In this document: positions 1-58,700 of the stretch, piece by piece | Layout: each line of letters starts with the position of its first letter | Numbering within the stretch: position 1 is the first letter of the stretch | Position numbers and translations under genes: made by a program | The notes under the pieces: model-generated | The model's database searches: none | Seen by the model: the letters and a program-made list of their open reading frames with translations, nothing else | Told to the model about the DNA's origin: nothing | DNA from: Myxococcales bacterium | Lineage (GTDB): Bacteria; Myxococcota_A; Polyangia; Polyangiales; DASUME01 | Length of the DNA: 64,000 nt | Direction: 5' to 3' | Assembly (NCBI GenBank): GCA_047601445.1 | Contig: JASGJH010000001.1 | Location: 1,184,001 to 1,248,000 of the forward strand

Positions 1-675
1 GCTTGTGCTCCGACGCTCCTGGCCTGTGGCGAGGACGCTCTGGTCGGGGAGGGCGACAAGAGCGGAGAGCCCCACGGGAATGGTGACCCCGGTGATCCAG
101 AAGCCGACTGTTGGCGGGTCGAAGACTTCGCATCCGTGCCTGCTAGTGACGCCGCTTTCGCACAGAGTCCTGCGGTAAGCATCGAGACCGCGCGCGGCAG
201 TTGGGGCAACTCCCTTGGAGATTCCTTGCTGGTCGAGATCCCCGGCGCTGGCAAACGTCGCGAATGGATTTGCTACGACGACCAAAACACGCCGGCCCCC
301 CCGGGCCCCATGCCCTACGTGGAGTTCGAGCTCCCGGCCGTACTCACGCTGCGCACGGCCGACGGCGGCTGGGACGAACGATTCGACACCAAGCTCGCGC
401 TCCATTCCTACGGACCCGATACGGGCGACAACGTGTTCAGCCTCCGGGGCGGCGGGTCTATTCCGCTGGCTGATTTGCACGGCACCTTCGTCGTCCCCGA
501 GGATCCGCAACATCCAGCGGCGGACAGCGTGTACATCAGCGCAAGCTTCGAGAGCGGTGGCTGGTTGGTGAGCCGAACGGTCAACCAAGCGCGCAACGAT
601 GGCGAGTCCTGTGGCTGCCTTGCCGACATCGGCCCCGCGTGGGAAGGCGAACCGCTGGCCTTGGTGCGGAAGTAA
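1..675 (+). CDS. Hypothetical lipoprotein, 5'-truncated by the window edge
   Basis: Frame of ORF 136..675 is open back to base 1 (ACAPTLLACGEDALVGEGDK...), with an LLAC lipobox-like motif. Confidence 0.6.
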   Translation, partial: ACAPTLLACGEDALVGEGDKSGEPHGNGDPGDPEADCWRVEDFASVPASDAAFAQSPAVSIETARGSWGNSLGDSLLVEIPGAGKRREWICYDDQNTPAPPGPMPYVEFELPAVLTLRTADGGWDERFDTKLALHSYGPDTGDNVFSLRGGGSIPLADLHGTFVVPEDPQHPAADSVYISASFESGGWLVSRTVNQARNDGESCGCLADIGPAWEGEPLALVRK

Positions 676-898
676 GGCGCGAACCCGCCGCTGGCTGGCG
701 CCCCTAGGTCGCTGCGCTAGCCCCTTCGGCATCGCGGCCCGCCGAAGGTGGGCATGAATACGACTGTCGCCCTTTCTCGGAGTCAGCGACGACCATGGAC
801 ATGGTGTAAGGAAGCACTGCCCTGGTTGACGCAAAAATCCTTCGCGTGAGGCCGACAACGATGGAACCGCGACCGCCGGTGTACGCCAAGCAAGCTTC

Positions 899-1595
899 TT
901 GCGAAACCGTGGAGTGAAGAGGGACGCTTGGCTCATGGGAGCGCTCTTGGCCGTCACTGGCCTCTCCTGCCTGTGGTGCTTGATCCACTCCAGACGCAGA
1001 CTTCGCTTACAAAAACAGCAAGAAACGGCGGTGTTTGAATCCGCCCAGCTAAAGCTTGCCGTGCATTTCCCCTCGATGACGTGGGCGAACTGGTCCCTCG
1101 GCGGAGGCGGCGTCCTGGTGACGGGGCCCGTCCGACGCAAAGGCCGACGACAGTGGCTGCTGGGCCACCGCGAGAAGCCGGCAAGGACGCCCGTCTGGCA
1201 GGCCATCGATCCGGCGCTCGTGGAGACCATCGAGGCCGCCTATCAACGCTTCGCACATGCGGAGTTCGAGTCCGAGATCGCCAATCAGTTGGGCAGTGCG
1301 TGGCTCGAACAACTGCGCCAGCGCGTCGGCAAACCCGACCAGCGCCCTGCAATCGTCCTCATCAGCCACCTTCGCCTGGCGAAGGCGCAAAAGAACGACC
1401 GAGCACGTCCGCCTAGCTAGAGAGCGAGCGGCAACATTCGCGCCGAACAACCTGAAGGACCTCGAACAAGCCAAGGTGCCCGTGTTGAACATCGTGCGCG
1501 ATGAATGGACGCCAGCATACGTCCAGTTCGCCAAGGACTACGACGAAGCCAAGCTCCGCAAGGCATTCGCGGACGATCCGCCACCCCCGCCGTGA
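899..1595 (+). pseudogene. Hypothetical membrane-anchored protein, probably frameshifted near 1390-1400
   Basis: ORF 899..1420 has an N-terminal TM segment; protein-like sequence continues in ORF 1257..1595 (EHVRLARERAATFAPNNLKDLEQAKVP...). Confidence 0.4.
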
Positions 1596-1671
1596 CAGGC
1601 GGTAGCGCCGCGAGGCGGGGCATCGTTCAGCCTTACCGCCTCGCCATGCGCTTCTGCTTACCCGCTGTCGG

Positions 1672-2405
1672 CTACGGCCTGACGCACACGCTCGGACTTC
1701 CCATGCAGGTCCATCCGCTCTCGATACGACAGGGGGCGAGCAAACTGCTCGACATCACACAACCATCACCGCTCACGTTGTTGGCGTCGTCGCATTGCTC
1801 GGTGCCTTCTACGATGCCGTTGCCACAAGTGTGAATGCACGTGGTCCGGCCACCGCTGGGCGTCGTGCAGGTGTAGCCAAGCTCCAGCTTGCACAGGCTC
1901 GAGCAGCCGTCCGCTGGCGTACGGTTGCCATCGTCGCAGGCCTCTCCAGCGTCGAGCGAGCCGTTGCCACAAAGCGTGGTGCACACGCTCCTCCCGCTCG
2001 CGTTGGTCACACAGGTCCAGGTGGCTTCCACGAAGCACGAGAGGGTGCATCCGTCACCGTTCACCCCGTTCCCGTCGTCGCACATCTGTCCGGGGTCGAC
2101 GATCCCGTCGCCGCAGCGGTAACAATGACTCTTCCCGCTGGCGTCGCTCGTACAAGTCCAGCCACTGTCGATGCGACAGGTCGCATCGCATCCATCGCCG
2201 ACGATCGCATTGCCGTCATCACAGTTCTCGCCGACTTGCACGACGCCATTGCCGCAATTCTTCGTGCAAGTGCTCCGCGCATCGGCGTCGACCGCGCAGC
2301 TCCACCCGGTCTCCACAGCACAAATACCGGAGCACCCGTCGCCGGTCGCCATGTTGCCGTCATCGCATGCCTCGGAGCTCCGCATGACGCCGTCGCCACA
2401 GGTAT
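1672..2405 (-). repeat. Five myxococcal cysteine-rich (DUF4215-like) protein repeats
   Basis: Five units of CG[DN]G-x7-CDD[GA]N-x4-DGC...[WY][ST]C in the translation. Confidence 0.85.
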
Positions 2406-4724
2406 TCGGACACGCGCCGTGCAGCACCTCGACAGTGGCCTGCCGGCCGTCCGACGAGAAACCGTTCACGCGCACCGCGAGGCGCCGGTATTTGTCGCAG
2501 AACGTATCCCCAACCTGCATCGCGCGGCCGAATCCAGCCGGGCGAACGAAACGGGTGTCGGCATCGCTGTTGACGACCGTGTTGTCGTACAGCCCCACGT
2601 AGACCCCCCTCGCGTCGATCTCCTCGTTCGTGACACCGGGCGGAGGCTGGTTGAAGCCTTCGTCGGTGCGGTACTCAACGAAGTAGAAGGCGTTCTTGTC
2701 GAGCGGAATGCGGAGCTGCTTGGATCCGCGGTAAACAGCTCGGAAAGGGTCCACGTCCCTCCCAGCATGTTCGTGTCGCTCACGATCTCGGCCGGCTGGA
2801 GCCAATTCATGTTCCAGAGGTGATGCGTGCTGAAGAGCGAAATCGTCTGCCTCACACCGCCCATGGGTTCGAAGTAGCCGTACTTCAGTGCTTGGCAGCC
2901 GCCGGCGGACAGGTCCGCGAGCCACGGTCCGGTGTCGCCATTGGGGCAGCTCCAAGACCCCGAGTGCATCAGGTTGCCGATGCCGTGTCCGATCATCTCG
3001 TGAACGAAGGTCGAGCGGTCGATCGTCTCGTAGGCGAGCGCATCGGGGCTCAGCTTGCCTCTCATGACGGCCGAGCCCGCGGTGACACCCGCGTCGGCGC
3101 TGCCCTGGAGGAAGTAGATCAGACGCTCGTAGTTGTCGACGGGAACGCCCGCCGCGCGGACGCGCGCCAAGATGTCGGCAGGCAAGGCACATTGATTTCC
3201 GACGCGGCCGATGGGAGCTGAGGGAGGCGCGCTGCACGTCGCCCAGTTCTCGGGCGTGCACTGGCAGTTCTTGGCGATGGTCTCACCCGCAAGCGTGATC
3301 CAATCGCCATTGGCGTCGCCGTGCACGTCTCCGATAATCCCCGCCTTTCCGCGCGACACGGTGCTCACGTACTGCCCCACCGTGTATCCCTGCCCGAAAA
3401 TCAGATCCCGGACCTCCTGAATGGTGTGCGGGCGGTTTCCGCCGGGGGCGTCCTCGTAGCGCACCAGAATCACGCCGAGATCAGCCTTGCTCGGCTGGTC
3501 CGTGGAGGTCTGCACGTTCGCGTATTCAGGATTCAAACACGGTGCCGGCGAAGTCGCGGTGAGCGAGGCCAGATGACTCATGGGCCCGCCGTTGGACGAG
3601 TAGCCGACCTGGAACGTATAGGTGGTGTTCGGCACTACGTTATACGAAATGGCGAAGGGGTTCTTCGTGATGCCTAGCGGCTGACCGTCGCGGAAGACCT
3701 GGTAATCGGGCGATGCAACGCCGGCGGGCGGATTCCAATCGACCCTCATGACGAGGTCGTTGCACGCCTCGTTGGTGGTCAAGCGCAGGTTCGTGGGCGC
3801 GGCCGCACGTGAGGCATACGGCAGGTAGCTGCAACTGAACGGCCCCTGGTACTCCCAGATGAGCCCGGACGCCGTGAGCCAGTTGCCCGAAACGGCCGGC
3901 GGCTGAAACGGTGCGGTGCCCTTGAGTTTGGTGTGGATCGTGACTCGGTCCGTGTGGAGCCCGGCAAAGCCTACGTCGGTGCCGAGTGGCTGGTTCGGCA
4001 CAACGACTGACTTCACGAGGGCGTTGTTCTTATAAAACTCAACCGTCAGGTTCGGACTGTCGCCGGCCCAAGCTTTCGCCAGGATGCGATACGTCGTCCC
4101 ATCGTTGACGAGCGGCGGCAAGACGTTCAGGCCGTTGTCCTGCGCGAGGAATACGCTGTTTTCCCCAAAGCGAGAGAGGATCTCGCAGAGTTCTTCATGG
4201 TCCTGTTCGGGGCGCCCGGGGGACTCCAATCGTTCGATGGTCCAGCCACCGTCGCCATGCCAACACGCCTCGACGAGCTTACAAGCGCTTCGTGCCGCGA
4301 GCTGCGCGCAGACCTGGCGACGCGGGCCGTTCGCCACTGTGTTGTACTGCGTCGCGCTGCTCGTAACCTGAAACTCGAGGTCGGTCTGCGCGGCCCATTG
4401 CGTCCAGCCCACACCCGTCCCGCCCAGAAATGCCGTCCCCTGCGGGCGCGTCACGTTGATCCAGCCGTCTCCGGGGGCATCGAAGCCGCTCGATACATCG
4501 AGCATACAGAGGGCCGATGGCCACGTAACGACTGGAGCCACGAGCGCCTGTTCGCTCGACGCGACGGTCGACTCGTTTGCGATCGTCGACTCGCTTGTCG
4601 GGGACTCCTCCTCTACACCGCATCCTGCAGCAAGCGCCAGCACGCAGGTCAGAAGCTGCCAAGACCGTCGGACCTTACCGCCACAATCAACGGAAGTTCG
4701 TCTGAGAGATACCTTTTGAACCAT
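1672..4724 (-). pseudogene. Large secreted lipoprotein: FN3-like domain + metzincin-like (M11/M6-like) metalloprotease + 5 myxococcal Cys-rich repeats; split by a frameshift at about 2720-2735
   Basis: ATG at 4724 with GAGGTGG RBS, lipobox LAAGC, HEMIGHGIGNLMHS zinc-site variant and EPMG Met-turn in ORF 2466..5270; continues as KQLRIPLDKNAFYFVEYR and CGDG..CDDGN..DGC repeats in ORF 1672..3261. Confidence 0.75.
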
Positions 4725-5194
4725 CTTCCACCTCAGCGCCCAACCATGCCCATCGGATGAAGCGTTGCTGCGAAGTTCCTGAAACAGCCCGCTTACGCAT
4801 CGGCGCCAACCACCACTAGAATTCAGGGGTGAACGCGAACGCGTGAAGGCGGTGCATGAAATCTCGCTGCACCGTGCGTCAGGGTGAACGCGTGACGCGG
4901 CCATCGTCCATGGAGGTACAGCTCGCAGGCTGCAGTAAGGTCGACTCGTCTGCCGTTGGAAGGGAGCAACCGGTGGTGCCGAGGATGAACGTCTCCGACG
5001 TGAAGGCGAGCCTCCGCCGCGTCGATCGGCAAGTCCAGGCCCCGCCGGCCCCAGCTGTTGATAATTATTGAAGAACTCGACCACAGCGCCGCCCCGAGCG
5101 CAAAAAGGCTCGGATTCGGTCACACTTGGGGGAGTAGCTGCTAGGAGCTCGGGTAGGGCAAAAGACTGCCCCCGGCGCAGCACCGCCCACTCCG

Positions 5195-5656
5195 ATGACC
5201 CGAGGCCCCCACGTCCCCCCGCGCAATTCCGACATCGGCCGCCCCCCGTGGCTGGCGATCCTGCGGGCATGGGCTCTCCTCGCCATCGCGCTGACCGGTA
5301 CCGCGCGAGCTCAAGGGCCCCTCGATCTCTTTCAGTGCTCGTTCACGGGCGCGGTTCTTACGGAGTGCTGCTGCCCGGCCAAGCAGCCAGCCCCTGTAGC
5401 AACGCTCTCGCAAGCGTGCTGCTGTGAACACCTGCACGTTGAAGCGGCGCCCGCCCCGAGCGCGACGATGTCCCAGGCGGCGCCCGCGCCAACCACGCCG
5501 CCGTGTGTGCTGCCATCGCGGCAGCCGACGGCGACTCTCGCACTCGCTGTGCCCGCGCGTGGCGCGCCTCGAAAACGCGACCTGGCACGACCTACGGCGC
5601 TCCGCTCCCGTGCGGGACCGCCGCTAACCATCGCCCACTGTCGCCTTCTGATTTGA
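5195..5656 (+). CDS. Small Cys-cluster exported protein preceding the cus operon
   Basis: Signal-like segment, CC and CCC clusters, Pro/Ala-rich tail; position typical of leaders of heavy-metal RND operons. Confidence 0.55.
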   Translation: MTRGPHVPPRNSDIGRPPWLAILRAWALLAIALTGTARAQGPLDLFQCSFTGAVLTECCCPAKQPAPVATLSQACCCEHLHVEAAPAPSATMSQAAPAPTTPPCVLPSRQPTATLALAVPARGAPRKRDLARPTALRSRAGPPLTIAHCRLLI

Positions 5657-5731
5657 GATCCGACCTTGCTCTGAATCGCTGGGGACCGCGCTTGCGCGCG
5701 GGCGAACCGAAATTCTGAGTTGGAGGTCTGT

Positions 5732-7054
5732 GTGCGAACCCGAGGGGTGTTCGCCGGGCTGTCGTTCTGGCTAGCGTCGACGCTGACGTACGCCCAGACG
5801 ATCGCGCCGGTGTCGATGAATGAGCTGGATGCGAGGCTCGCGCAGGAGGCGCGGCTCGAGTGGATCGAGCGCGTGGCGTTGGCGGGGCAACCGTCCCTGG
5901 CAGAATCCAGAGCGCGGGCGCTGGCAGCGGAGGAACGGGCCACGGGCGCCGCTCGTCTGCCTGATCTCGAGTTCAAGTACGAGCAGTGGGCGGTGCCGCT
6001 CAATCGCCCCTACGCGCTGAACCGGGCCGACACCGTGATGTTCGGCCTCAGGCAGGCCTTCCCCGCACCGGGCACGCGACAGGCGCGAGAACGAATCGCC
6101 AACGAAGAAGCTCACATGTTCTCGGGCCAGACGCGCGTCGCCACCCGGGATCTGATGGTTCGCGTTCGGAGAGCGTTCTTCGAGTACTACGTCGCGGACC
6201 GCGTCCTGCGCCTACACCTCGAGCACGTCGGCGTGGCAGAGCAAATCGTCGCCCAGGTCCGAGCCAACTACGAGGTGGGCCGCGGCGATCAGCAGGACGT
6301 GCTGAAAGTCCTGGTGGAGCTTTCGCGCCTGCACAACGACCTCGCGGAGATTCGTCAACAGCGTGAGTCCAGTCGCCTGCTGCTGAACGCACTGATGGCG
6401 AGAACGCCGCAGGCCCCCCTCGGTCCCCCTTCCGAACCGAGTCTTTCCGGCGCGGCTCCGTCGGTTGCCGAGCTCGAAAAGGAACAGGCTACCGGTAGGC
6501 CCGAACTCGAGCTCGCGCGCCGCGCCATCAGACGTTCTGAAGAGACGTTATCGCTGGCGCGAAGCGCTGCGCGCCGACCGAGCTTCGTGGTGGGGGCGGA
6601 CTACTGGCTCATGCCGACCGAGAACATGCCGCACGCCTACGGCGCCATGGTGATGATGTCGCTGCCTTGGCTCAACGGAGCTCGCCGCGCCGACGTACGA
6701 GAGGCCGAACGACTCTTGGCCGCCGATCGCCACGCGGCCGAAGCGACCCACAATACAACGGCCTTCCAGCTTCACGACGCCGTGGCCCGGCTCGACGCTG
6801 CGAGAACTTCGTTCGAAGCCATCGACCGCTCCGTGCTACCGCAAGCGGAGAAGAGCATGGTGGCGACCCGCTCGGCCTTCGCTGTCGGGCAATCCTCGCT
6901 CCTCTCCCTGCTGGACTCCCTGCGCGCGTACTTCGAGGTGCGGCTCGAGCACAGCCGGGCGTGGTCACGCGTGATGACCGAGCTTGCCAATGTCGATTTC
7001 GCCTCGGGTGGACGCGTGATTCCGACCCCGAGCATCGTGGAGGACAAGCCGTGA
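5732..7054 (+). CDS. cusC: TolC-family outer membrane factor (CusC/CzcC-like)
   Basis: OEP-type helical repeats; GGAGG RBS before GTG 5732; first gene of the RND triplet. Confidence 0.85.
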   Translation: MRTRGVFAGLSFWLASTLTYAQTIAPVSMNELDARLAQEARLEWIERVALAGQPSLAESRARALAAEERATGAARLPDLEFKYEQWAVPLNRPYALNRADTVMFGLRQAFPAPGTRQARERIANEEAHMFSGQTRVATRDLMVRVRRAFFEYYVADRVLRLHLEHVGVAEQIVAQVRANYEVGRGDQQDVLKVLVELSRLHNDLAEIRQQRESSRLLLNALMARTPQAPLGPPSEPSLSGAAPSVAELEKEQATGRPELELARRAIRRSEETLSLARSAARRPSFVVGADYWLMPTENMPHAYGAMVMMSLPWLNGARRADVREAERLLAADRHAAEATHNTTAFQLHDAVARLDAARTSFEAIDRSVLPQAEKSMVATRSAFAVGQSSLLSLLDSLRAYFEVRLEHSRAWSRVMTELANVDFASGGRVIPTPSIVEDKP

Positions 7055-8610
7055 CTGACCGAGATTCCCCGAACGAACCTGGTGTAGGCGCGGAGCTCGA
7101 GCACTTCGAAGAAGGCGTGGAGGCAGCACCTCCGGGCACGCGCGTGATGGCTGTCCTCCGCTGGGCACTGGTGGCCCTGATGGCTGGCGCCGCCGTCCTG
7201 TCGTTCGTCTATGCTTTCGGAGACACCAGTCACGCCGAGGGCGGCGGCCCGGTGCAGTACTACTGCCCGATGCACCCGTCGGTGGTGCAAGACCATCCGG
7301 GCGAGTGTCCGATCTGCAGCATGACGCTGGTTCAGCGCGAAGGCCCCGACGAGCACCAGGCAGAAGCGACGAAGCCAGGTCATGAAGGACACCGGCACGA
7401 GCCAAGCGATCCCTACTTCTGCCCAATGCATCCCGAGGAGACGGGTGACGAGGCGTCGGACCGGTGCCCCTTGTGCAGCATGAAGCTGGAGCAGCGCACG
7501 TCGACGGCGCCGCCGCCGACGGGAACGAGACCGTCGGCCCAAGCCGCCTCCAAGCCTGCGAGCGGCGACGCTCCAGCTCTCGCCGAGCCCCTTTCGCCCC
7601 TCGAGCTCACGCAGGACCGCGTGCAGCTGATCGGGATGAAGACGGCCCAAGTCACACGGGAAGGCCTCTCCGCCGATGTCCGCGCCGTTGGCTACGTGAC
7701 CGCTCCCGAATCCGGTCTGGCCGTGGTGCAGACGCGGTTTTCCGGTTGGATTCAGGAGCTGCACGTGGCGCAGACCGGACAGCTCGTGCAGCGCGGTCAG
7801 CTCCTCGCCCGGGTCTATAGCCCAGAGCTCCTGGCCGCCCAACAAGAGCTGCTGAACGCAAGACGCTGGAGCGCCAGTGCCACCGGCGAAGGGGCCGGCA
7901 CACCGGCGGTGAGTGGCCTCGCCCAGAGTGCCCGCGACCGACTCGAGCTGCTCGGGATGCATCCCGAAGAGATCACCCAAGTCGAGCGTGCAGGTACGCC
8001 CCACAAGTTGGTCGAGCTCCGATCCCCCACGCGCGGCTACGTGGCCCAGAAGAACGCCATCGAGGGGCTCTACATCCAACCCGGTACGCGCCTCTTCGAC
8101 ATCGCCGACCTCTCGAAGGCCTGGGTCATCGTCGAACTCTTCGAGCGAGACGCCGGACGGGTAAGCGTGGGCCAGCGGGTCAGCCTCCACCTCACCGCCT
8201 ATCCCGGAGAGGAGTTCGTGGGGACGGTTCAATTCCTCTATCCCATGATCGATCCGGAAACCCGAACCCAGCGCGCGCGCATCGAGTTTCCGAATCCTCG
8301 CTTCCGGCTACGACCCGGCATGTTCGGCGAGCTGCTCATGCGCATGCCCAGCACAGATTCGCTGGTCGTGCCGCGAGAGGCGGTCATCGACACCGGCGAC
8401 TACCAGTACGTGTTCGTCACCCAGGGAGAGGGCCGGTTTGCGCCGCGCGCTGTGCGCCTGGGCATGCGTTCCGACGAGCGCGTGCAGGTGCTCGCGGGGC
8501 TCTCCGAGGGCGAGTCCGTGGTGACCACCGGTAACTTTCTGCTGGACTCGGAGAGTCGGCTCCGCTCCGCGATCGAAGGGGCTTCACATAAGCCCGCTGG
8601 CACGCACTGA
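7051..8610 (+). CDS. cusB: RND periplasmic adaptor (CusB-like) with two heavy-metal-binding YxCPMHP domains
   Basis: GTGA overlap with cusC; YYCPMHP..CPICSM and YFCPMHP..CPLCSM; RLRPGMF and GNFLLDSES motifs. Confidence 0.9.
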   Translation: MTDRDSPNEPGVGAELEHFEEGVEAAPPGTRVMAVLRWALVALMAGAAVLSFVYAFGDTSHAEGGGPVQYYCPMHPSVVQDHPGECPICSMTLVQREGPDEHQAEATKPGHEGHRHEPSDPYFCPMHPEETGDEASDRCPLCSMKLEQRTSTAPPPTGTRPSAQAASKPASGDAPALAEPLSPLELTQDRVQLIGMKTAQVTREGLSADVRAVGYVTAPESGLAVVQTRFSGWIQELHVAQTGQLVQRGQLLARVYSPELLAAQQELLNARRWSASATGEGAGTPAVSGLAQSARDRLELLGMHPEEITQVERAGTPHKLVELRSPTRGYVAQKNAIEGLYIQPGTRLFDIADLSKAWVIVELFERDAGRVSVGQRVSLHLTAYPGEEFVGTVQFLYPMIDPETRTQRARIEFPNPRFRLRPGMFGELLMRMPSTDSLVVPREAVIDTGDYQYVFVTQGEGRFAPRAVRLGMRSDERVQVLAGLSEGESVVTTGNFLLDSESRLRSAIEGASHKPAGTH

Positions 8611-8620
8611 GGGAGGCGTC

Positions 8621-46507: not shown

Positions 46508-46518
46508 CACGCGAGCGC

Positions 46519-47004
46519 TCAGTGGTGCTCTGCGCCGTGTCCTTCGCCGTGCTCCGCGCCGTGTCCTTCGCCGTGTCCACCCTGGACGTGGATCTCCTGG
46601 AACAGGCCACGACCGGGCGCTTCCACGCCGTCGTCCGAGACCTCAGTGCCGTAGGCCTTGTCCCACTGACCGCGGTGCTGCGTGTCGTTCATCGTGTACA
46701 CGAAGAACACGCCCATGAAGAGCAGTGCGCCCACGAAGATGAGCACGTTGAAGCGGTTATCGTCCTTCAAATGCATGAAGAACATGGCCACCAGGCTGGC
46801 CTTGATGGTGGCGATGGCAACCGCCACGAAGAAGTTCCACTCCCCCAGGTGAACCTGCGCCACACCGATGGTGAGCAGCGTGAAGAACACCAGGGCGGCG
46901 AAGATCTTGTAGTAGGTCGAGGCGGGGTGTACATGCACGTGCACCAGGCCGTCGTCCGGAGCGTTGACGTGGTCGTGGCTGAGATGGTCGTTGTGTCCGC
47001 TCAT
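46519..47004 (-). CDS. coxD: Cytochrome c oxidase subunit IV
   Basis: IATIKASLVAMFFMHLK. Confidence 0.9.
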   Translation of the reverse strand: MSGHNDHLSHDHVNAPDDGLVHVHVHPASTYYKIFAALVFFTLLTIGVAQVHLGEWNFFVAVAIATIKASLVAMFFMHLKDDNRFNVLIFVGALLFMGVFFVYTMNDTQHRGQWDKAYGTEVSDDGVEAPGRGLFQEIHVQGGHGEGHGAEHGEGHGAEHH

Positions 47005-47011
47005 GGCTGCC

Positions 47012-47704
47012 TCAGTCGATCAGGTACAGGAAGGGGAACAGGTAGATCCAGATCAAGTCCACCAAATGCCAGTAAAGGGCAGAGAGGTCGACCGGGGTCC
47101 AGAAGTCCTTGGTGAACTCGCCGCTCTCGTTGCGACGCCAGATCCACAGCAGCACGCCGATGCCCACGATGACGTGGACGCCGTGGACGCCGGTGGCCAT
47201 GAAGTAGATGGAGAAGAACGAAGCCGAGCCGGGCGGGAACACGCTGGCGACGGTGTGTCCGGCCACCGGGGCGAAGAACTGCCCAGGCAGAAGACCCGCG
47301 TGGAACTTGTGGCTGTACTCGAAGTACTTGACCACCAAGAAGATGCAGGCACACGCCACGGTGATGAGTAGGAACGCGCTGGTCTTGCCCTTCTCACCGA
47401 GCTGCGCGGAGCGCACCGCGAGCACCGCGGTCAAGCTGCTGAAAAGCAGCACGAGCGTGTTGAGACCGCCCATCTTCCAGTCGAGCTCGTGCGAACAGAC
47501 CGACCAGGCTTCCGGGTACCACATACGGAAGACGAGATAGGCGACGAAGAGACCCGAGAAGAACAGGAGCTCCTGTGCCAGGAAGAGCCACATGCCCAAC
47601 TTGGCCGCGTCGAACTGCTGCGCGGGGGTTTCGAAGTGGTGCGCGAGATAGGCCGGGCCGTGGTGGCCGTGGGCGTCTCCGTGACCGTGTGCTGCTTCAC
47701 TCAT
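47012..47704 (-). CDS. coxC: Cytochrome c oxidase subunit III
   Basis: LGMWLFLAQE, TGVHGVHV, YWHLVDLIW. Confidence 0.95.
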   Translation of the reverse strand: MSEAAHGHGDAHGHHGPAYLAHHFETPAQQFDAAKLGMWLFLAQELLFFSGLFVAYLVFRMWYPEAWSVCSHELDWKMGGLNTLVLLFSSLTAVLAVRSAQLGEKGKTSAFLLITVACACIFLVVKYFEYSHKFHAGLLPGQFFAPVAGHTVASVFPPGSASFFSIYFMATGVHGVHVIVGIGVLLWIWRRNESGEFTKDFWTPVDLSALYWHLVDLIWIYLFPFLYLID

Positions 47705-47734
47705 GGGTAGATGCTCCGGGTTCGGTCACTCAGG

Positions 47735-49363
<1,629 letters not shown>

Positions 49364-49376
49364 GTTGGTGCTCCCA

Positions 49377-50351
49377 CTACTTGAGCGACTTGATGTATTC
49401 GATGAGGGCGTCGATCTTCCAGTCCTTCATGACGAAGACCGGCATCGTGGCGCCCCCGAAGCCCTTGGTGATCTTGGCTTGCGGCTGCAGGATCGACTGG
49501 CGGATGTAGTTCTCGTCGACGACGTTGGTGCTGCCGTCCTCGAACGACTCCGTCTTGCCGAAGAGACCCTTGAAAGAGGGGCCCACCAGCTTCGAACCGT
49601 CCACCGTGTGACAGGTGTTGCAGGCGTTCTTCTTGTACAGCTCGGCTCCCACCTCGGCGAGCGGCTTGCCCTCGGGGGGCACGTCCTTGCCAGCGATGAA
49701 GGCCTGGTAATCCTCGGGCGACACCACGTGCACCTTCGCCAACATCTGCGAGTGGCTGGTGCCGCAGTACTCGGTGCAGAACAGGTCGAGGGGCTCACCC
49801 TCCACCTTGTTCGCAGCCTTGTTGTAGGTCGACGTCGTGGCCGTGGCCTCGAACCACACCGAGCTGTACATGCCGGGGACCACGTCGCGCTTGACGCGGA
49901 ACTCGGGGATGTAGAACGAGTGCAGCACGTCGAGCGACGACATCTGCATCTTCACGGGCAGCCCCACGGGCACCACGAGCTCGCCAGGCGTGGGCTCGGT
50001 GTCGCCAGGGTAGTAGAAGTCCCAGACCCACTGCTTGCCGCGGGCGCGGATCTCGATGGCCTTGTCCGGCGCCACCATGGCCTGCACGTAGCCCTTGAAC
50101 CCGTAGTGGAACATCGGGATGAGCAGGATGAGCGGGGCGAACGTCCAGAACAACTCCAGCACGTCGTGGTGACCGGGCGGCGTGGAATGGGGGTTCTTGT
50201 CGCGGCGATACTTGATCAGGAACCAGATGGCGGCTCCGATGATCGCCACGAAGAACACCACGCTCACCCAGAAGATGAAGTAGTACATGTTGTCGATGTC
50301 CGCGGCGAGCGTGGACATCTGGCGTGGGAGCTGAACGGTTGCTTCTTTCAT
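49377..50351 (-). CDS. coxB: Cytochrome c oxidase subunit II with fused cytochrome c (caa3-type)
   Basis: [18 protein letters not shown]uA site, CNTCH. Confidence 0.96.
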
Positions 50352-50356
50352 GACCT

Positions 50357-51232
50357 TCAGACCTCGCGAACTTGAGGCTCGCTGGAGACGGATGGCTTGT
50401 TCGGCAGCGTGGTGGCGAGTCGCTTGGAACGCGCCTCACGTCGCCACATGACCAGCAGGAAAAAACCGAGCACGAAGACCGTGATCACGCCGCCGAGACG
50501 CATGACGTTTCGAGCGACGAGCACGTACTTGGCCCCGATGGGATCGTACATGTAGCAGTACAGGATGGCCTTCTCGATGGTGGAGATGCTGCGGCCCTGG
50601 GAGGCCTCGAGCAGACCGAGTCGGACGTCCTGTTGGGGAAACTCGAGCCCGTACAGATAGCGGGCCATCTCGCCGTTGGGCTTGGTGAGCATGAGCACCG
50701 CGGGGTGAGCGAACTGATCGTTGCGCTCGTCGTAGCGGTACTTGAAGCCAGTGGCCTCCGCGACCTTCTTGATGTTCGCGTCGTCACCGACCAAGAAGTC
50801 CCATCCCTCCGCGGACTTGCCGTACAAAGCCAGCATCTGCTTGCGCTTCTTGGCGGCGGTGGCCGGGGTGTCGCGCGAGTCGATGCTGATGGTGACCGCG
50901 CGGAACTCCTTACCCAGGGTCCAGGGCTGCTGCTTGAGGACTTCCACCTCGGCGCCCAGCACCATGCTGCACACGACCTTGCAGCCGTGATAGGCGAGCG
51001 TGAGGGCCACCGGACGCTTCCCGTCGAAGTAGTCCCCCAGACGCACCAGCTTGCCCGTGTGGTCGCGGAAGACCGCGTCCATGGGCAGCTTGTGGTCGAG
51101 CCGCTCGGTCACGTCCACCGCCTCGAGCTCGGCCGGCATGATGGCCGGCTGAGCACGCACGACGCCCGCCGTGAGCAGCACGCTCAGGCTCAGCAGCATC
51201 GCAAACGCGGATGAGGACAGGCGGCTCGACAT
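50357..51232 (-). CDS. SCO-family copper chaperone
   Basis: YHGCKVVC (CxxxC), FAHPA. Confidence 0.9.
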   Translation of the reverse strand: MSSRLSSSAFAMLLSLSVLLTAGVVRAQPAIMPAELEAVDVTERLDHKLPMDAVFRDHTGKLVRLGDYFDGKRPVALTLAYHGCKVVCSMVLGAEVEVLKQQPWTLGKEFRAVTISIDSRDTPATAAKKRKQMLALYGKSAEGWDFLVGDDANIKKVAEATGFKYRYDERNDQFAHPAVLMLTKPNGEMARYLYGLEFPQQDVRLGLLEASQGRSISTIEKAILYCYMYDPIGAKYVLVARNVMRLGGVITVFVLGFFLLVMWRREARSKRLATTLPNKPSVSSEPQVREV

Positions 51233-51234
51233 GA

Positions 51235-51669
51235 TCAGTGAGCGGCTCCGGGGGCCGGGGCAGCTTCAGGAGCGGCAGCGGGAGCCGCTTCGGGGGCGGG
51301 CGCGACAGCCTTGGGGGCCTCGGCCGCAGCGCGCGGGAGCTGGCTCCAGCCTGCGACGCCGGGAGCACCCTGCCCGCTCGCGGGAGCGATGACCGGCGAA
51401 GCGCTGCGACCGCGCTGACCGAGCAGCTTCATGGCCTGGTCGATGGGCATGCTGCCCTTCTGCAGGGTCTCCGCTTCCTTGGCGCGCACGGCGGCCACTT
51501 CGGCCATACCGCGGCTCCACACCTTCTCCTGGTACTCCGCGTTCATCATGCTCGCGAAGTAGGAGTCGAGCAGGAACTTCACGCCGATGAGCATGAAGAC
51601 CGTGAGCACGGTGTAGAAGAAGATGATGCCGTTACGTGGAGGACTGTCGTCGAAACCTTTGGCAGCCAT
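51235..51669 (-). CDS. Small single-TM protein (ActG-like position)
   Basis: One TM, located between actF and sco. Confidence 0.7.
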   Translation of the reverse strand: MAAKGFDDSPPRNGIIFFYTVLTVFMLIGVKFLLDSYFASMMNAEYQEKVWSRGMAEVAAVRAKEAETLQKGSMPIDQAMKLLGQRGRSASPVIAPASGQGAPGVAGWSQLPRAAAEAPKAVAPAPEAAPAAAPEAAPAPGAAH

Positions 51670-51757
51670 GGCCGAAGCTCCTATTGAATCCGCGAGGGTC
51701 GAGGCGGGCGGGCGAGCCCGCGAGCGAATCTGATAAGCGGGCGAACGAGCCTGGTAA

Positions 51758-53113
51758 TCAGGCGTTCAAGAAGTGGAGGGAGCGCGAGAGACGCGGGTCC
51801 TTCACCGGGATGATGGGGTGCTTGGTCATGCGCCAGAACACCAGCGCGAAGTAGGTCCCGCCGACGAACATCAGGCACGCCAGGTCCACCAGGCTGGGGC
51901 TCAGGCCGTGACCGTAGTAGGGCAGCACGAGCCAGTACACCATGGCGAAGTGGAAGCAGAGGATGATGGCCGCGCCGAGACCGAGTGGCGTGAGGGCACG
52001 CTTGGCGTTGCGCGAGAGGATGATGAAGAAGGGCACGATGAAGTGGCCGAAGATGAGCGCGATGCTCCAGGCCTTCCAACCGGCGCCGCCCTCGTCCCAG
52101 CGCTTGTGGTAGTACGTGGTCTCTTCCGGAATGCTCGCGTACCAGATGAGCATGTACTGGGAGAAGTTCACGTACGCCCAGAACACCAGGAAGCCGAACT
52201 GCAGCTTGCCGAGGTCGTGGAAGTGCTCGACGTTGACGGCCTTCTTGAAGTGCCCCTGACCGCGCAGCGAGAGGCCGATCAGGATCGTGGTCGCGAACAG
52301 CGACACGATGCACTGGGCGAAGAAGTTCACGCCGAAGATGGTGGAGATCCACGACGGCTCGAGCGACATCAGCCAGTCGAAAGCCGCGAACGTGGTGGTG
52401 AGCGCGAAGAAGATGATGGCGACGGGCGCGAAGCGCTGTGAGCTCACGGTGTGGGCCGGGTCGCCGTCGATGTCTTGCTTGGTGGAGTTCTGGAAGAACT
52501 TCCGCGAGATGAGGATCCAGGCAGCGAAGTAGATCACCGCGCGGATGATGAAGAACGTGAGGTTGAGGTACGGCTCCTTCTCAGCCAGCACCTTGGCGTG
52601 GGCCGCGTGCTCTGCTTCGGGGAGCACACCCTCGATGGCGGGGGCGTCGTGCTCGCCGCCGGAGTGCTCGCCACCCTTGGCCTCGCCGTGCTCGTCGTGA
52701 CCAGCGGCTTCGTCTGCGTGCTCCGCGCCGTGCTCGCCGTGTCCGGCGTGGTTGAGCCACGGGTAAAGCTGCTCGCGGAACCCGAACACCGGAATGAACA
52801 GGATCAGGAACACCCAGAGCGGCCAGTGCAGGAACTCGGTGAGGCGTCGAATGGTGACGCTCCAGCCGGCGTTCGTGAGCCACTGAAGGATGCCGAAGAA
52901 CACGCCTCCCAGCGCGATGGTCAGGAAGGCGATATAGGCGAACAGGTACGAGAACGCGAAGCGCTCGTGGTCGCTGAAGGCCGTGAACAACACGCCTGCC
53001 AGACCGACGGCACCCACCGCAGCGGCCACCTTCCACGCACCGGCCCAGGAGCTGTCCGCGGGCAGGACGTACGCTTGGCCCGCTGCATCTTGCGCTTTGC
53101 TCTGATTACTCAC
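51758..53113 (-). CDS. actF: Alternative complex III subunit ActF
   Basis: AGWSVTIRR, FDWLMSLEP.W.STIFG, HDLGKL..GF, YMLIWY. Confidence 0.92.
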   Translation of the reverse strand: MSNQSKAQDAAGQAYVLPADSSWAGAWKVAAAVGAVGLAGVLFTAFSDHERFAFSYLFAYIAFLTIALGGVFFGILQWLTNAGWSVTIRRLTEFLHWPLWVFLILFIPVFGFREQLYPWLNHAGHGEHGAEHADEAAGHDEHGEAKGGEHSGGEHDAPAIEGVLPEAEHAAHAKVLAEKEPYLNLTFFIIRAVIYFAAWILISRKFFQNSTKQDIDGDPAHTVSSQRFAPVAIIFFALTTTFAAFDWLMSLEPSWISTIFGVNFFAQCIVSLFATTILIGLSLRGQGHFKKAVNVEHFHDLGKLQFGFLVFWAYVNFSQYMLIWYASIPEETTYYHKRWDEGGAGWKAWSIALIFGHFIVPFFIILSRNAKRALTPLGLGAAIILCFHFAMVYWLVLPYYGHGLSPSLVDLACLMFVGGTYFALVFWRMTKHPIIPVKDPRLSRSLHFLNA

Positions 53114-53712
53114 TGTGCGGCCCCTGTGCTGTTGGCCTGGCTCAACTGAAGCGCGCGCACGTAGGCGACGATGGCCCAGCGGTCGTCCGCGGGCACCTGC
53201 ACGTAGGCGGGCATGTTGTTGTAGCCGTAGGAGATGACTTGATAGAGCTGTCCATCGGGCATCGTGCGGATGCGATCCTGATGGAACGTGGGCGGCTGGA
53301 AGGCCTGGTTGGCTGCGCGCTGGATCACGAGGCCCTTGCCGTTGCCCGTGCCGTCGTGGCAGGGCACGCAGTAGATGCCGTAGCGCCCCTGGCCGCGCTC
53401 AACCAGCTTCTCCATATCTCCTGCGCGCTGAATCACCACCGCGGGGATGGTGTCCACGAAGCCCTGGCCATCGGCCGTGCGACCTTCGGCCACCGCCGGG
53501 TTGAGCTCCATTTCACGCGCCACCGTGCCCTCCACCGGGGCGCGCATGGTGCGACCGTCGGCGAAGAACGCGCTGTAAGCCTGCGGATTGTACCGGGGTT
53601 GCTGGTACATGTTGCGCAGGATGGCGAGGGGCTCTTCCTTGCTCTGGCCGCCGCGGCAGCCGAGGGAGAGGGCACTCAGAGCGAGCACCGCGATTAGACG
53701 TGCGGGCTTCAT
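53110..53712 (-). CDS. actE: ACIII monoheme cytochrome c lipoprotein ActE
   Basis: LGC lipobox, CVPCH, MPAY, RWAIVAYVRALQ. Confidence 0.92.
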   Translation of the reverse strand: MKPARLIAVLALSALSLGCRGGQSKEEPLAILRNMYQQPRYNPQAYSAFFADGRTMRAPVEGTVAREMELNPAVAEGRTADGQGFVDTIPAVVIQRAGDMEKLVERGQGRYGIYCVPCHDGTGNGKGLVIQRAANQAFQPPTFHQDRIRTMPDGQLYQVISYGYNNMPAYVQVPADDRWAIVAYVRALQLSQANSTGAAQ

Positions 53713-54284
53713 ACCTCTTCCACCTCTTCAGAGAGCAGCTCCACGTTGGCGGGATGCAGCGTCTCGAGAAAGCGGCGCGTGTGCGCCACATCGAACTGGG
53801 GATCTGCGGCTTCCACGGAGATGAAGAACTTGTCCGTGGAGAAGGCCTTGAAGCGCTCCGACTCGAACACCGGATGGTTGTGCCGCGGCAGGGCGTTGAG
53901 GCCCAACATGCCGAAGAAGCAACCGAGCGCCGAGAACAGAATCGTGAGCTCGAAGCAGATGGGAATCATCGAGGGGATTGAGATCGGTGGCTTACCGCCG
54001 ATGATGATGGGGTACTCGATGCCGTTGGCCCAGATGATGAGGCCCGCCGCGGTCGCGAGACCCGAGAGCGCCATCACCAACACGATCCAGCCGAGGCGTG
54101 AGTCGCCCATGCCCATCGCGGCGTCCATGCCGTGGATGGGATACGGGGTGTGCACGTCCCACTTCTGGTAGCCGGCATCGCGCACCTTCTCGGCTGCGTG
54201 CAGGACGTCGTCGGGCTTGTCGAACTCGGCGAGGATAATCGCCGGGCGGACTTTCTTCTGGGGGATGGTTTGAGCGGCTGACAT
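53709..54284 (-). CDS. actD: ACIII subunit ActD (DUF3341)
   Basis: DVHTPYPIHG, IGGKP, PICFELTIL. Confidence 0.92.
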   Translation of the reverse strand: MSAAQTIPQKKVRPAIILAEFDKPDDVLHAAEKVRDAGYQKWDVHTPYPIHGMDAAMGMGDSRLGWIVLVMALSGLATAAGLIIWANGIEYPIIIGGKPPISIPSMIPICFELTILFSALGCFFGMLGLNALPRHNHPVFESERFKAFSTDKFFISVEAADPQFDVAHTRRFLETLHPANVELLSEEVEEV

Positions 54285-54299
54285 GACGTTCTGTTCCCC

Positions 54300-55718
54300 T
54301 CACTCCGCCACGACCGGCGCCCCGTGGGGAGCCGCGTGTTCGTCTTCTTCTTCGTGATGATGGGGCTGGGATTCCGGGAGCACGCCCTTCACTTCGGCCA
54401 TGGCGATCATCGGGATCCACCGGATGAACAGCAGGAAGAGCGTGAAGAACAGGCCCAGCGAACCGGCGTAGATGCAGATGTCGATGATGGTCGGGCTGAA
54501 GTTGCCCCAGGACGACGGCAGGAAGTCACGGTGCAGCGAGGTCACGATGATGACGAAGCGCTCGAACCACATGCCGATGTTGATGAAGATACTGACCACG
54601 AACATCACGGGGATGCTGGTGCGGAGCTTCTTCGACCAGAAGAGCTGGGGCGAGATGACGTTGCAGGTGACCATCGACCAGTACGCCCACCAGAGCGGAC
54701 CCGTGGCGCGGTTGATGAACACGTAGCGCTCGTAGGGGTTGCCCGAGTACCACGCGATGAAGAACTCCATCGCGTACGCGTAACCGACCAAGGTGCCCGT
54801 CACGAGCATGATCTTGTTCATCAGCTCGAGGTGCTTCATCGTGACCAGCTCCTGCAGACCGAACACCGAGCGGCAGATCAGCAGGAGGGTCATCACCATC
54901 GCGAAGCCGGAGAACACGGCGCCAGCGACGAAGTACGGCGGGAAGATGGTGGTGTGCCAGCCAGGCATCACGGAGGTAGCGAAGTCGAAGCTAACCACCG
55001 AGTGCACGGAGAGAACGAGGGGGGTCGAGATGGCGGCCAGGATGAGGTACGCGCGCTCGTAGTTGCGCCAGTGGCGGTTCGAACCGCGCCAGCCGAAGGC
55101 GAAGAAGCCGTACACCATCTGGCGGATCCGGCTCGAGGAGCGGTCGCGCAGCGTCGCGAAGTCGGGGATGAGACCCGTGAACCAGAAGAGCAAGGACACC
55201 AGGAAGTAGGTGTTCACCGCGAACACGTCCCAGATGAGCGGGCTCTTGAAGTTCGGCCAGATGCCCATCTGGTTGGGGATGGGCAGCATATAGTAGGCGT
55301 GCCAGAGGCGACCTACGTGGATGCCGGGGAAGATCAAGGCGCAGATAACTGCGAAGATCGTCATCGCTTCCGCGAAGCGGTTGATCGACGTGCGCCACTT
55401 CTGCCGGAACAGGAACAGAACGGCGGAGATCAGCGTGCCCGCGTGACCGATACCGATCCACCAAACGAAGTTGGTGATGTCCCAGGCCCAAGCGACGGGG
55501 CTGTTGTTGCCCCAGCTGCCGATGCCGGTCCACGCCAGGTAGCCGATGGCCAGGCCGAGCACACCCGTGAAGGTGGCGGCGATAAGGAAGAGAATCCACC
55601 ATCCCCGGGGCGCCGGCGTCTCGTTCACGCGACTCACGGAGTCGGTGATCGACTTGCACGTCGTACCCTCGGGCAGAAGCAGACTCTCGCCGATGGCGGT
55701 GATAGGTCCGTCGCTCAT
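54300..55718 (-). CDS. actC: ACIII subunit ActC (NrfD/PsrC family)
   Basis: [35 protein letters not shown]. Confidence 0.95.
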
Positions 55719-58700
55719 CCCTGCATCTCCGGGTTCGGATTGCGAATCTTGGCTAGGTAGCTGGTACGCGGCTGGGTGCCGATCTCGGGCAGCAGCTTGT
55801 ACTGGCGGTCGAGCTTGGTGAGCTTGGCCACGCGGCTCGAGGGATCGTTCAGGTCGCCGAAGCTGATGCAGCCCGAGGGGCATGCCTGCTGGCAGGCGGT
55901 CTTGATGTCGCCGTCGCGGAGCTTGCGGCCGTCGCGGCGGGCGGAGATCTTGGCCTCCTGGATGCGCTGCACGCAGTAGGAGCACTTCTCCATCACGCCG
56001 CGCATACGCACGGACACGTTGGGATTGAACTGCATGCGCGTGGTCTCAGCGACCTGGCCGGTGAAGTCGAGGAAGTTGAACCGACGCACCTTGTAGGGGC
56101 AGTTGTTCATGCAGTAGCGGGTGCCGATGCAGCGGTTGTAGGCCATGTCATTGAGGCCTTCAGGGCTGTGGGCGGTCGCGTTGACCGGGCACACGTTCTC
56201 GCAGGGAGCTTCCTCGCAGTGCTGACAGCCGACCGGCTGGAATGCCACCTGGGGGTCAGCCTCATCGGCGCCCACGAAGTAGCGGTCCAGACGCAGCCAG
56301 TACATGTCGCGACCGCGAGCGACCTGCTCCTTGCCGACGGTTGAGACGTTGTTCTCGGCCTGGCAGGCGACGAGGCAGGCGTTGCAACCCGAGCAGGAGT
56401 TGAGGTCGATCACGAGCGACCACTTGTGGCCCTCGTACTTCACCTCGGTCCAGAGCGGCAGTGTGCTGAGGGTCGGAGACTTGAACTTCGCGAAGTTCGC
56501 CTTCTCCTTGTACTCCTCCAGCGTGGCATCCAGAGCGATGGGACGGCCCTGCATGCTGTGGGTCTCCTGGGTCTGGGAAACCTTGTACTGACGGCCAACC
56601 TTCTCGACGGTGTAGCCGTCGCCGAAGCCAAAGGCCTGCGTGGTGCGCAGCGGGTAGACATCGACGCCGACGGTCGCACCGTCCTTGACGCCCACCGTAT
56701 CGCGCTGGGGGCTCGGGAGCGGACGTCCCCAACCGAGGTGCAGCGTGATGGTGTTGTCGGTCTGGCCGGGCAGCACCCAGGTCACCACCTCGATGGCGGC
56801 CCCGTTGGCGCCCTTGATGCGCACCAGGTCGAGATTCGCGATGCCCAGCGCCTTGGCCGTGCCGGCCGAGACGTAAGCCGCGTTGTCCCAGCTGATGCAG
56901 CTGAGCGGATCGGGCAGCTCGAGCATCCAAGGATTGTTCGCGTGGCGACCGTCGTAGAGCGCCGGGTCCGCCGCGAAGTTCACTTCGAGGTTGTTGGCGC
57001 CGAGAGCGTTTTTGCTCTCCGGAATCGCGGCCAGAGCCTGCGTGAGCGAGGCGTCGGCGAGCTTGGCGTCGGTGACGGGCTGCACGCTGAGCTCGCGCAC
57101 GAGGCCCAGGTGAAGCGACGCCTTCCACTGCTGCTCGAAGGATGCACCACCCATGCCCTCGCGGACCGTAGTGCGCGTGATGTTGTGGGCGCGCCAATAG
57201 GAAACCCCGCTGGCGAGGGCGAGCACTTCGGCGTCCGTGCGACCGCCGCGCATGGGCGCGATGAGCGGCTGCTGAACGCTGTACGTGCCGTCGCTGGCGC
57301 GTAGGTCGCCCCAGCTCTCGAAGGCGTGCGCGCGCGGAACGGTCCACGTGGTCAGCTGCGAGGTCTGGTTGCGGTGCTCGGAGAGGTGGATGCTGGTGCC
57401 GGCCTTCGAGACCAGCTCGGCAAACTTGAGGTCCGCAGGCGCCTCGAGGACGGGGTTGCCGCCGAGGATCAACAGCGTATCGACGTTGCCACCGGCCACG
57501 TCCTTGGCGAGGGCGGCGATGCCGGCCGTGGCGCCTTCGACGTTGGCGTCGAGCGCGGGCACGAGTTGCACCGAGCGACCGACGTTGCCGAGCGCGTGGT
57601 TGAGGGCGAATGCCAGGGCGTGAACCGCGGCTGGCTGACGGGTGCCCACCACGATGAGCGAGCGACCGCGGGCCTGGGCAGCGCCGATTTCCTTGGCGAT
57701 GGCGACGACAGCCTTCTCTGTGCCGGCCGGAGCCTTGGCTCCCTGCACGGCATTGCGGAGCGCCGCGTAGCTGGTCGGAGCCGCTGCTTCAGCAGCCGGG
57801 GCTGCGCCTTCGACAGGAGCCGGAGCGGCTTCGCCGTCCTTGATGGCACCTTGCGTGACGAGCTCGGCGGCGAGCGCCTTGAGGAAGGCGCCCATGTCAC
57901 GGGCAGGCAGGCGCACGCGGTTATCGGCCGACGCGCCGGTCAGCGTATAGCCGGGCTCGATCGCGTAGAGACGGTTCATGCCGTCGCCGGGCGAGGTCAG
58001 ACGGCGACCGTCCGAGAACTCGCGCGAAGCGCGGGGCGAACCAGGCTCGGTGCCGAGGAAGTCCGCGTCCACCGACACGATGGTGCGGGCGCGACGGTAG
58101 TTGAAGCTCACGTCGAGCGGCGCACCGAAAGCGGCGCTGGCGCCGGCCTTGCGCTCGGCGGAGCTCACGGGCTCGTAGGTGTAGACCTTGGCTTCGGGGA
58201 ACTTGGCCAGGAACTCCTTCTGCACGCGCACGAAGGTGGGCGACTGGCTCGGCTCTGCGAGCACGCGGAGCTTGGCCCCCTTGGTGGCCTCAGCCTTCTT
58301 GGCGAGCTCGGCGAACGCCGCGTCGAAGTCGGCGAACGTGGACTCCTTGAAGCCCTCCCCGCTCTTCTGCGCGGGAGCCGGCGAACGGCTCGCGTCGTAG
58401 AGGTCGAGGATGGACGCCTGGGCGTAGCCGTCCGTGCCGCCGAGGCTGCTCGGATGCTGGGGGTTGCCTTCGACCTTGGTCGGACGACCTTCGTGGGTGG
58501 TCACGAGCAGGCCGAGCGGCTCGCCCGCGCTGCGCACGACGGTGGCGTAGCGAAGGGCCACGCCGGGCACCACGTACTCAGGCTGCTTGGTGAAGGGGAG
58601 GATCTTTTCCTCCGGGCGACGCACGCACCCCTCGAGACCGAGCAACGCACCGGCAGCACCGGCGACGCTCATGAAGGTACGACGGTCGACCTGCAACGCA

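Follow-up and report, generated by a model that had tools for sequence, protein, structure and literature searches.

The window analysed here, a 64,000-nucleotide stretch of a Myxococcales genome (positions 1,184,001-1,248,000 of one 9,502,601-bp contig, JASGJH010000001.1 of assembly GCA_047601445.1, the whole of which was used for genome-wide counts), carries the chromosome's single dif site and, inside one arm of it, the remnant of a group II intron. Taken as a whole, the explanation that we regard as well founded is that this sole dif, on which the FtsK-orienting polar sequences (KOPS) converge, received in its XerC arm an intron belonging to a small clade, the 5' end of which rebuilt the arm. 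The convergence of KOPS on dif is textbook knowledge, whereas for group II introns we found dif as a target in no paper. The KOPS matter here all the same, as they show that the invaded site is the only dif of the host and not a spare copy.

The site reads ACTTCGCAGAA-GATAGA-TTATGTAAACC, is intergenic and has the 11-6-11 layout over 28 bp; its arms were named by comparison with the tables of two earlier studies (PMC2731167; PMC10132070). In a genome scan with a matrix built from the sites of 20 relatives it scored 39.2 bits, inside the range of the 20 training sites (32.6-43.8), as against 22.0 bits for the runner-up, and no competing dif was present genome-wide within six mismatches. Two sister genomes that have no intron there (G004 and G008) agree with it at each of the first 23 bases. 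The genome also encodes XerD (361.6 bits to TIGR02225, over cut-off), a close paralogue that is XerC-like (289.5 bits, the XerD-type model being used for both) and an FtsK gamma domain (PF09397, over cut-off). The unique best score, the KOPS switch described below, the identity with the sister genomes, the xer and ftsK genes and the position of dnaA opposite the site together identify it as the chromosomal dif, as the first-pass annotation had proposed; its presumed function follows that of the known Xer/FtsK system. A matching site occurs in five of the nine other genomes of the genus and was not found with two patterns in G001, G003, G007 and G009, which are drafts 72-99% complete; a looser pattern is matched in 126 of 151 genomes of the order (a tally that includes G476). 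The next-best dif-like sites of the genome lie clustered at 147,593, 165,935 and 167,112 of the contig (G000:C1; 22.0, 20.7 and 19.4 bits), with genes for tyrosine recombinases not far off (171 and 183 kb), and are possibly secondary Xer or attachment (att) sites of an island. Elsewhere, one 6-Mb genome (G324) holds 129 matches to the dif pattern, many of them the same 26-mer, which makes them a multicopy dif-like repeat, and several matches each were seen in G212, G425, G438 and G453.

The first-pass annotation had counted GGGNAGGG by eye and described a flip in its polarity around 30.2 kb. An exact count returns the same positions throughout: on the plus strand 46, 5151, 8676, 9462, 11241, 13590, 15824, 18504, 22329, 27489 and 29225, in reverse 34647, 38157, 38970, 38975, 40138, 40276, 42423, 44183, 51368 and 58353, with exceptions of opposite strand at 3388 on the left and 37100 on the right. 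One further reverse motif, at 62445, was absent from that list. The flip thus stands at 11 plus and one minus to the left, and one plus and 11 minus to the right (Fisher p = 1.1e-4 for 11:1 vs 1:11, with a split point picked after seeing the data). Over the whole genome, the four variants of GGGNAGGG occupy ranks 1-4 among 65,536 octamers sorted by strand-bias z, and six patterns with rearranged GGGNAGGG letters reach a bias of 57-66%, compared with 81% for KOPS. Other octamers in the top skew list owe their place to a CRISPR-like array that starts at about 77,900 of the contig, outside the window, with a 66-bp period, some 110 copies and a unit containing AGTGTAACCA. Applying two switch points, 1372 of 1699 KOPS are directed towards dif genome-wide, and 44 of 47 within 100 kb; their leading-strand bias climbs from 70% at 4-5 Mb to 86-96% within 1 Mb, and within 32 kb they are about 1.8 times as dense as over the wider region (Poisson p 0.01, for a window chosen post hoc). 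The cumulative KOPS curve peaks at window 29,225-38,156 and has its minimum at 5.78 Mb, beside dnaA (5.772 Mb), which lies at the opposite skew extreme from dif. By maximum likelihood, the switch falls at window 29,225-34,647, with 95% support out to 38,157.

The same annotation had concluded that the window probably spans the replication terminus. This stands as far as the convergence point of the FtsK/dif system is concerned, which is in the window, but GC skew gives only a plateau, with its raw cumulative maximum at 1,120,881, 93 kb to the left of dif. It is possible, at odds a little short of even, that dif is correctly placed and yet the forks usually meet 60-190 kb leftward, the window not being the terminus proper. 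Besides the raw peak at 1.121 Mb, the antipode of dnaA (1.021 Mb) and the unequal replichores (4.56 and 4.94 Mb) speak for it. Against it, raw skew and four-fold-site skew are both flat over 1.10-1.25 Mb, a plateau that includes dif, and the four-fold-site curve, which comes from a crude open reading frame filter (7804 frames) and shows the plateau only, rises to almost the same height at 1.125 Mb and at 1.25 Mb; moreover, distances between dif and skew of up to about 200 kb, arising from noisy skew, are among those reported (PMC2731167). This alternative is compatible with the explanation given above: the window holds the FtsK/dif convergence, and forks may usually meet somewhat to the left of dif.

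The intron lies on the minus strand and its coordinates are collected in the table. The canonical GUGYG start and AY end are both lacking. The boundaries were set by comparison. In the loci with a readable 5' end (65 of 81), exon-binding site 1 (EBS1) pairs with the six bases preceding a conserved hexamer at 6/6 positions in 53 and at 5/6 in 8; among the four lower scores, that of L021 came from a mis-picked loop, and by eye its pairing is 6/6 with one G-U. Relatives end in CTACTCTCC followed by A or C, hence the G that comes next in the window belongs to the exon. In domain I the basal stem shows covariation, judged by eye, from position 7 on (ATTGG/CCAAT, ACTG/CAGT, CCGG/CCGG, GTTG/CAAC). 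EBS1 register, CTACTCTCC ends and stem covariation together define the intron as 30,186 to 29,131. The description of dif as 'intron-embedded' in the first-pass annotation did not survive this delimitation: the intron starts at 30,186 within the XerC arm, splitting it between positions 5 and 6 (TTCTGC vs GAAGT on the minus strand), so that positions 1-5 of dif (30182-30186) are now supplied by the intron and the remaining 23 of 28 bp are 5' exon. The non-canonical ends are a trait of the lineage and not evidence against intron identity, since in its wider circle 58 of 61 sister introns start with GNNGYG and ends are CC, CA or AC. The same tendency was noticed at L001 and L026-L098, where the six-base start is mostly GTTGCG or GATGCG and the end often CC or CA instead of GUGYG/AY.

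The window copy corresponds to nucleotides 1-98 plus 997-1952 of the 1952-nt relative L019, at about 90% identity. The internal deletion took most of domain I including EBS1, domains II-III and the first ~150 codons of the reverse transcriptase (RT), and from these losses the copy appears to be dead. A soil-run contig (X1-3) carries the ~0.89 kb that is deleted between the two parts. EBS1 of the full-length relatives L019 and L023, GCAGAA, fits the window's intron-binding site 1 (IBS1), TTCTGC. TIGR04416 matches the full-length RT P0001 over cut-off and the window RT partially. No other copy of the intron was found in the genome by blastn or tblastn. Intron starts at the GTGCG motifs at 30,245 or 30,100 were ruled out by alignment with full-length relatives; a 5'-truncated intron lying beside dif was likewise rejected, the loss being internal, as was a 3-nt microhomology at the deletion junction, where about one base is shared when L019 is the reference.

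Features of the window around the invaded dif site (window coordinates)
Feature	Position	Strand	Remarks
Left KOPS arm	46..29232	+	11 GGGNAGGG rightward, 1 opposite (3388)
Lone IS1202-like end	29071..29120	-	TGT terminus, inner repeat ending ATGTCGGG
Spacer CAACC, 5 bp	29121..29125	+	between old XerC arm and IS end; same five bases beside intron-free dif of G002
Displaced outer XerC-arm bases ACTTC	29126..29130	+	start of 3' exon
Group II intron remnant	29131..30186	-	1056 nt, GAAGTG...CTACTCTCC; full-length clade members 1942-1952 nt
Intron domains V-VI	29131..29204	-	Rfam RF00029, 52.4 bits vs gathering score 40
5'-truncated endonuclease-less RT/maturase frame	29208..30086	-	YADD intact; residues 150-439 of 440-aa relative, 77% identical
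Internal deletion junction	30086..30087	-	about 0.9 kb lost (898 nt vs L019)
First 100 nt of domain I	30087..30186	-	matches L019 at 87/98 aligned bases; its 5 leading nt restore positions 5 to 1 of the XerC arm
Chromosomal dif	30182..30209	+	XerC arm 30182-30192, 6-bp centre 30193-30198, XerD arm 30199-30209
IBS1 TTCTGC	30187..30192	-	last six 5'-exon bases, the inner six of the XerC arm
Right KOPS arm	34647..62452	-	11 motifs leftward, 1 opposite (37100)

A metagenome scan yielded 410 confirmed intron relatives, of which the best 80 were kept. Nine RTs (those of the window, of G009 and of seven metagenome loci), 74-85% identical to P0001, the protein of locus L021, form one clade in both trees that we built: a quick first tree with at least five wrongly cut rows (100 SH-aLRT) and a tree rebuilt from tblastn-cut proteins, 75 of 85 being distinct (0.927). 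The clade shares its target. Its 5' exons end in TTMTGC (5/5 members with a 5' exon) and its 3' exons start with GAAR (6/6 with a 3' exon), and three of the five 5' exons contain a full XerD arm at the right spacing, compared with none of 57 sisters; the XerD-arm scores are 20.0, 20.0, 13.4, -1.7 and -2.7 bits in the clade, with a sister maximum of 2.6 (n=57). Within the genome there are 1541 TTMTGCG sites, only two of which reach 10 bits for the XerD arm, one being dif. EBS1-IBS1 pairing is 6/6 in L019, L022 and L023, and EBS1 follows the arm allele, being GCAGAA with TTCTGC (L019, L023) and GCATAA or GTATAA with TTATGC (L022, L021); these two sequences are the XerC-arm alleles of the order (T in 21 and G in 7 of 29 sites). 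A 198-nt contig from another soil run covers 30,152-30,212, that is the intron start and the whole of dif, with three differences before it diverges. No RT match occurs at any of 34 other dif-pattern loci of about 3 kb, within ~1.5 kb of the site, so the window insertion looks recent and not inherited. The G009 copy runs off its contig at the 5' end and is 3'-truncated. Six RT residues are specific to the clade, which has no insertion, and we draw no conclusion from them; a match at 44% identity in another genome of the order (G641) falls outside the clade and was not used. At one clade locus, L023, the end of another, different group II intron (L023:1300-1390) lies about 28 bp upstream of the dif-like site occupied by the clade intron, which puts two introns around one Xer site.

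The bases at which the intron begins, GAAGT, restore ACTTC at arm positions 1-5, and the rebuilt arm is that of G004 and G008. Starts in the clade are of the form GWAGTG (GAAGTG in three, GTAGTG in two), compared with GWTGCG in most of the 61 sister starts, many of which are near-copies (GTTGCG in 39, GATGCG in 15, others in 7). The two changed positions give T3 of the arm, present in 28 of 29 order sites without being forced by the search, and A1, which the search pattern does force. With GAAGT, dif keeps its 39.2 bits; sister-type starts would leave 21.6 or 27.4, below the training minimum of 32.6. The pattern is shown by these comparisons, and it suggests that the 5' end of the clade shifted from GWTGCG to GWAGTG in such a way that insertion leaves a usable site. 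As a single evolutionary event underlies the shift and a matrix score is no assay, adaptation is what we infer from it.

There is about an even chance that the clade represents a dedicated dif-hunting lineage that reads complete Xer sites, retunes EBS1 to the host allele and has evolved an arm-rebuilding 5' end, finding its sites perhaps via XerC-bound DNA or the single-stranded DNA of the terminus. Several observations weigh against the overall explanation given at the outset. Only five 5' exons are available; L019 and L023 share a metagenome, and that of L020 bears a similar number, while the sites of L021 and L023 are on 3-kb contigs, too short to be placed as chromosomal dif. In two of the 5' exons, those of L019 and L022, no good XerD arm is present (12.8 and 17.4 bits for the whole site), the exon-side match of the 198-nt soil contig amounts to 26 bases, and L022 and L023 start with GTAGT, which alters arm position 4 (33.4 bits on the window site). 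No EBS2-IBS2 pairing was seen in the clade by eye; RNA pairing therefore spans about seven bases and leaves the rest of the specificity unexplained. The clade is also rare: beyond G009 it has no member in 400 genomes of the class, 400 of the order and 400 of the phylum, nor in viral contigs, and nothing exceeds 60% identity in plasmids.

Some of these points could be accommodated by homing to a short target together with survivor bias, which we find doubtful but worth weighing. The intron would then read some 10 bp, TTMTGC/GAAR, and be blind to dif, the excess at dif coming from purging of other insertions or from mobile DNA gathering there. The poor XerD arm in two of five 5' exons and the missing EBS2 pairing fit this, and as the genome has only 15 TTMTGCGAAR sites, dif is a fair share of the targets. 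Yet dif is one of these 15, whereas full sites occur in three of five insertions and in contig X1-7, for which the chance is about 0.003 if the loci are independent, as they only partly are. EBS1 has moreover changed in step with the arm allele, and the two poor sites may be degenerate Xer recombination sites (xrs), since natural sites are described in which the XerC arm is good but the XerD arm divergent (PMC5357621). Much less probable is the idea that GAAGT stands at both ends as a target duplication or a repair-templated copy and not as an inherited intron end. CGAAGTG is indeed found at both window junctions, but L022 starts with GTAGT where the displaced arm is GAAGT, L019 starts with GAAGT where the displaced arm is GAAAC, and the clade hexamer lines up with GWTGCG, at which the sisters begin; since the starts of L019 and L022 differ from the displaced bases, GAAGT is not a target copy. 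Finally, that dif was captured or carried as cargo wholly inside an intron starting, for example, at the canonical GTGCG that on the intron strand lies upstream of dif (30,245-30,241), is scarcely credible, given that similarity to L021 and L023 begins at the XerD arm with differing spacers and flanks, that domain I begins at 30,186, where stem and EBS1 register set the start, and that the displaced arm end and the spacer at 29,121-29,130 mark where dif was cut.

The allele that received the intron can be reconstructed from the sister genomes. All five other genus genomes with a dif match have an intron-free dif, and in four of the five an end resembling those of the insertion sequence (IS) IS1202 lies 5 bp from the XerC arm. 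Such ends were seen at L013, L015, L016 and L018 (G002, G005, G006 and G008), mostly as broken remnants, and also at L133 (G507) in the same order; beside dif in G005 and G008 they lead into ISNCY transposase fragments, below cut-off. These ends and the spacer of G002 indicate that the empty allele consisted of IS end, CAACC and dif. In the window the TGT end with its inner repeat stands 5 bp away from the old XerC arm, as elements of the xrs-targeting subgroup of IS1202 are described to do (PMC10132070; bioRxiv 10.1101/2022.12.17.520857), and dif targeting by IS1202 extends to these myxobacteria. No transposase follows the end in the window and it has no 5-bp duplication, so we file it as a remnant only; a genome search with two motifs turned up no second end of this kind.

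The course of events that we propose for the chromosome with this preferred reading would begin with an IS1202-type element sitting 5 bp outside the XerC arm, if the two insertions came in that order. The next step would have been reverse splicing of an endonuclease-less group II intron into the XerC arm, on the bottom strand and at the point where TTCTGC meets GAAGT, while its EBS1 was paired with the six inner bases; comparison gives the boundaries and this pairing, and the reaction itself is presumed. Insertion would have destroyed dif had the intron start, GAAGT, not put ACTTC back at positions 1-5. Later deletions would have killed the intron and left a single IS end. The clade as a whole would home into the XerC arms of dif and dif-like sites, most likely through EBS1 together with recognition of GAAR in the 3' exon by the protein, which would make up a target of some 10 bp that coincides with the XerC arm. 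An added preference for complete dif may come from upstream contacts, bound Xer proteins or single-stranded terminus DNA. Priming could take place at the fork, as in RmInt1 (PMC5894124), and at the fork that copies the shorter replichore (4.56 vs 4.94 Mb) the intron strand would serve as lagging-strand template, as RmInt1-type retrohoming prefers.

Comparison with known systems sets the case apart. As in the dif/XerCD and KOPS systems of Escherichia coli and Vibrio cholerae (PMC5357621; PMC2731167), the site is 11-6-11, unique, intergenic and at the KOPS convergence, more than 90% of nearby KOPS point to it, and XerD, XerC-like and FtsK-gamma genes are present; unlike there, XerC-arm positions 1-5 derive from an intron, and Xer recombination is predicted from sequence. 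The ISAba32/ISAjo2 subgroup of IS1202 (PMC10132070; bioRxiv 10.1101/2022.12.17.520857) resembles the clade in hunting the XerC side of dif or pdif in one orientation. They belong to the DDE transposons and insert 5 bp outside the arm, which stays intact, whereas the clade intron, a retroelement, breaks into the arm and takes the place of its outer part. Group IIC and IIC-attC introns (PMC4424553) share with the clade the absence of an endonuclease and a recurring target tied to a tyrosine-recombinase site, there attC. The clade intron differs from them in its length of ~1.95 kb and in inserting inside a recombinase arm with the site rebuilt; its 6-bp EBS1-IBS1 duplex, its ~560-nt 5' ribozyme part and the lack of a hairpin-plus-T run before the site place it outside class C. 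The 440-aa protein and 1.95 kb would fit the endonuclease-less introns of class F / g2-g4 (PMC3552965 Table S2), compared by size alone. RmInt1 and RmInt2 of class D, like the clade, have no endonuclease domain, home to conserved stretches within repeated elements and prefer the lagging-strand template; RmInt1 reads 20 nt of the 5' exon and 5 nt of the 3' exon (PMC5894124). Their targets are insertion sequences, which are inactivated, whereas the clade targets a segregation site of its host and restores it. The best Sinorhizobium meliloti plasmid RT matches are only ~46% identical, and these matches are not identified as RmInt1. A working dif remains after insertion of integrative mobile elements exploiting Xer (IMEX). 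These elements, such as CTX, TLC and GGI, also insert at dif, by XerCD recombination and with a dif-like site of their own (PMC5357621), while the window has no second dif, only 5 bp of the arm on the far side in place of two flanking dif-like sites, and the enzyme is the intron ribozyme with its RT.

In full-text literature searches, whose coverage leaves out most subscription journals, we found no paper that deals with introns in dif. Chromosome segregation should suffer from such an insertion, because dif acts as DNA and cannot be saved by splicing, and the clade appears, from its sequences, to avoid this loss by bringing the missing bases at its own 5' end. Integrating elements that rebuild the tRNA gene they enter offer an analogy. 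If true, the clade would have a harmless and widely conserved landing site and a fourth specificity for bacterial introns, beside homing sites, terminators and attC, the only ones named in the relevant part of a 2015 review (PMC4424553). It would add retroelements to the exploiters of dif, next to IMEX and IS1202, would show the conserved 5' end of a ribozyme under a second selection at the DNA level, and would give a testable case of an endonuclease-less intron that finds one site while its RNA pairs over about seven bases. A tool for integration at a site found in most bacteria may also come of it.

A few further observations concern the surroundings. In the window, a minus-strand set of genes at 47,735-58,936 encodes cytochrome c oxidase subunits I and II, SCO, NrfD and a 4Fe-4S protein, which we take to resemble an alternative complex III plus oxidase operon; this operon-like set accounts for a local rise of GC skew. 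A tandem DUF1254/DUF1214 gene pair lies at 19,129-22,404. In G009 (L002:1669-1712), an IS end with 24 bases identical to window 29,068-29,091 is found 670 bp past the 3'-truncated intron copy and may be the far end of the same arrangement of dif, intron and IS. A 2.2-kb intron contig among contigs 16 and 17 of run X2 aligns, with gaps, into the IS1202-like end at 29,070, which hints at another intron copy beside such an end.

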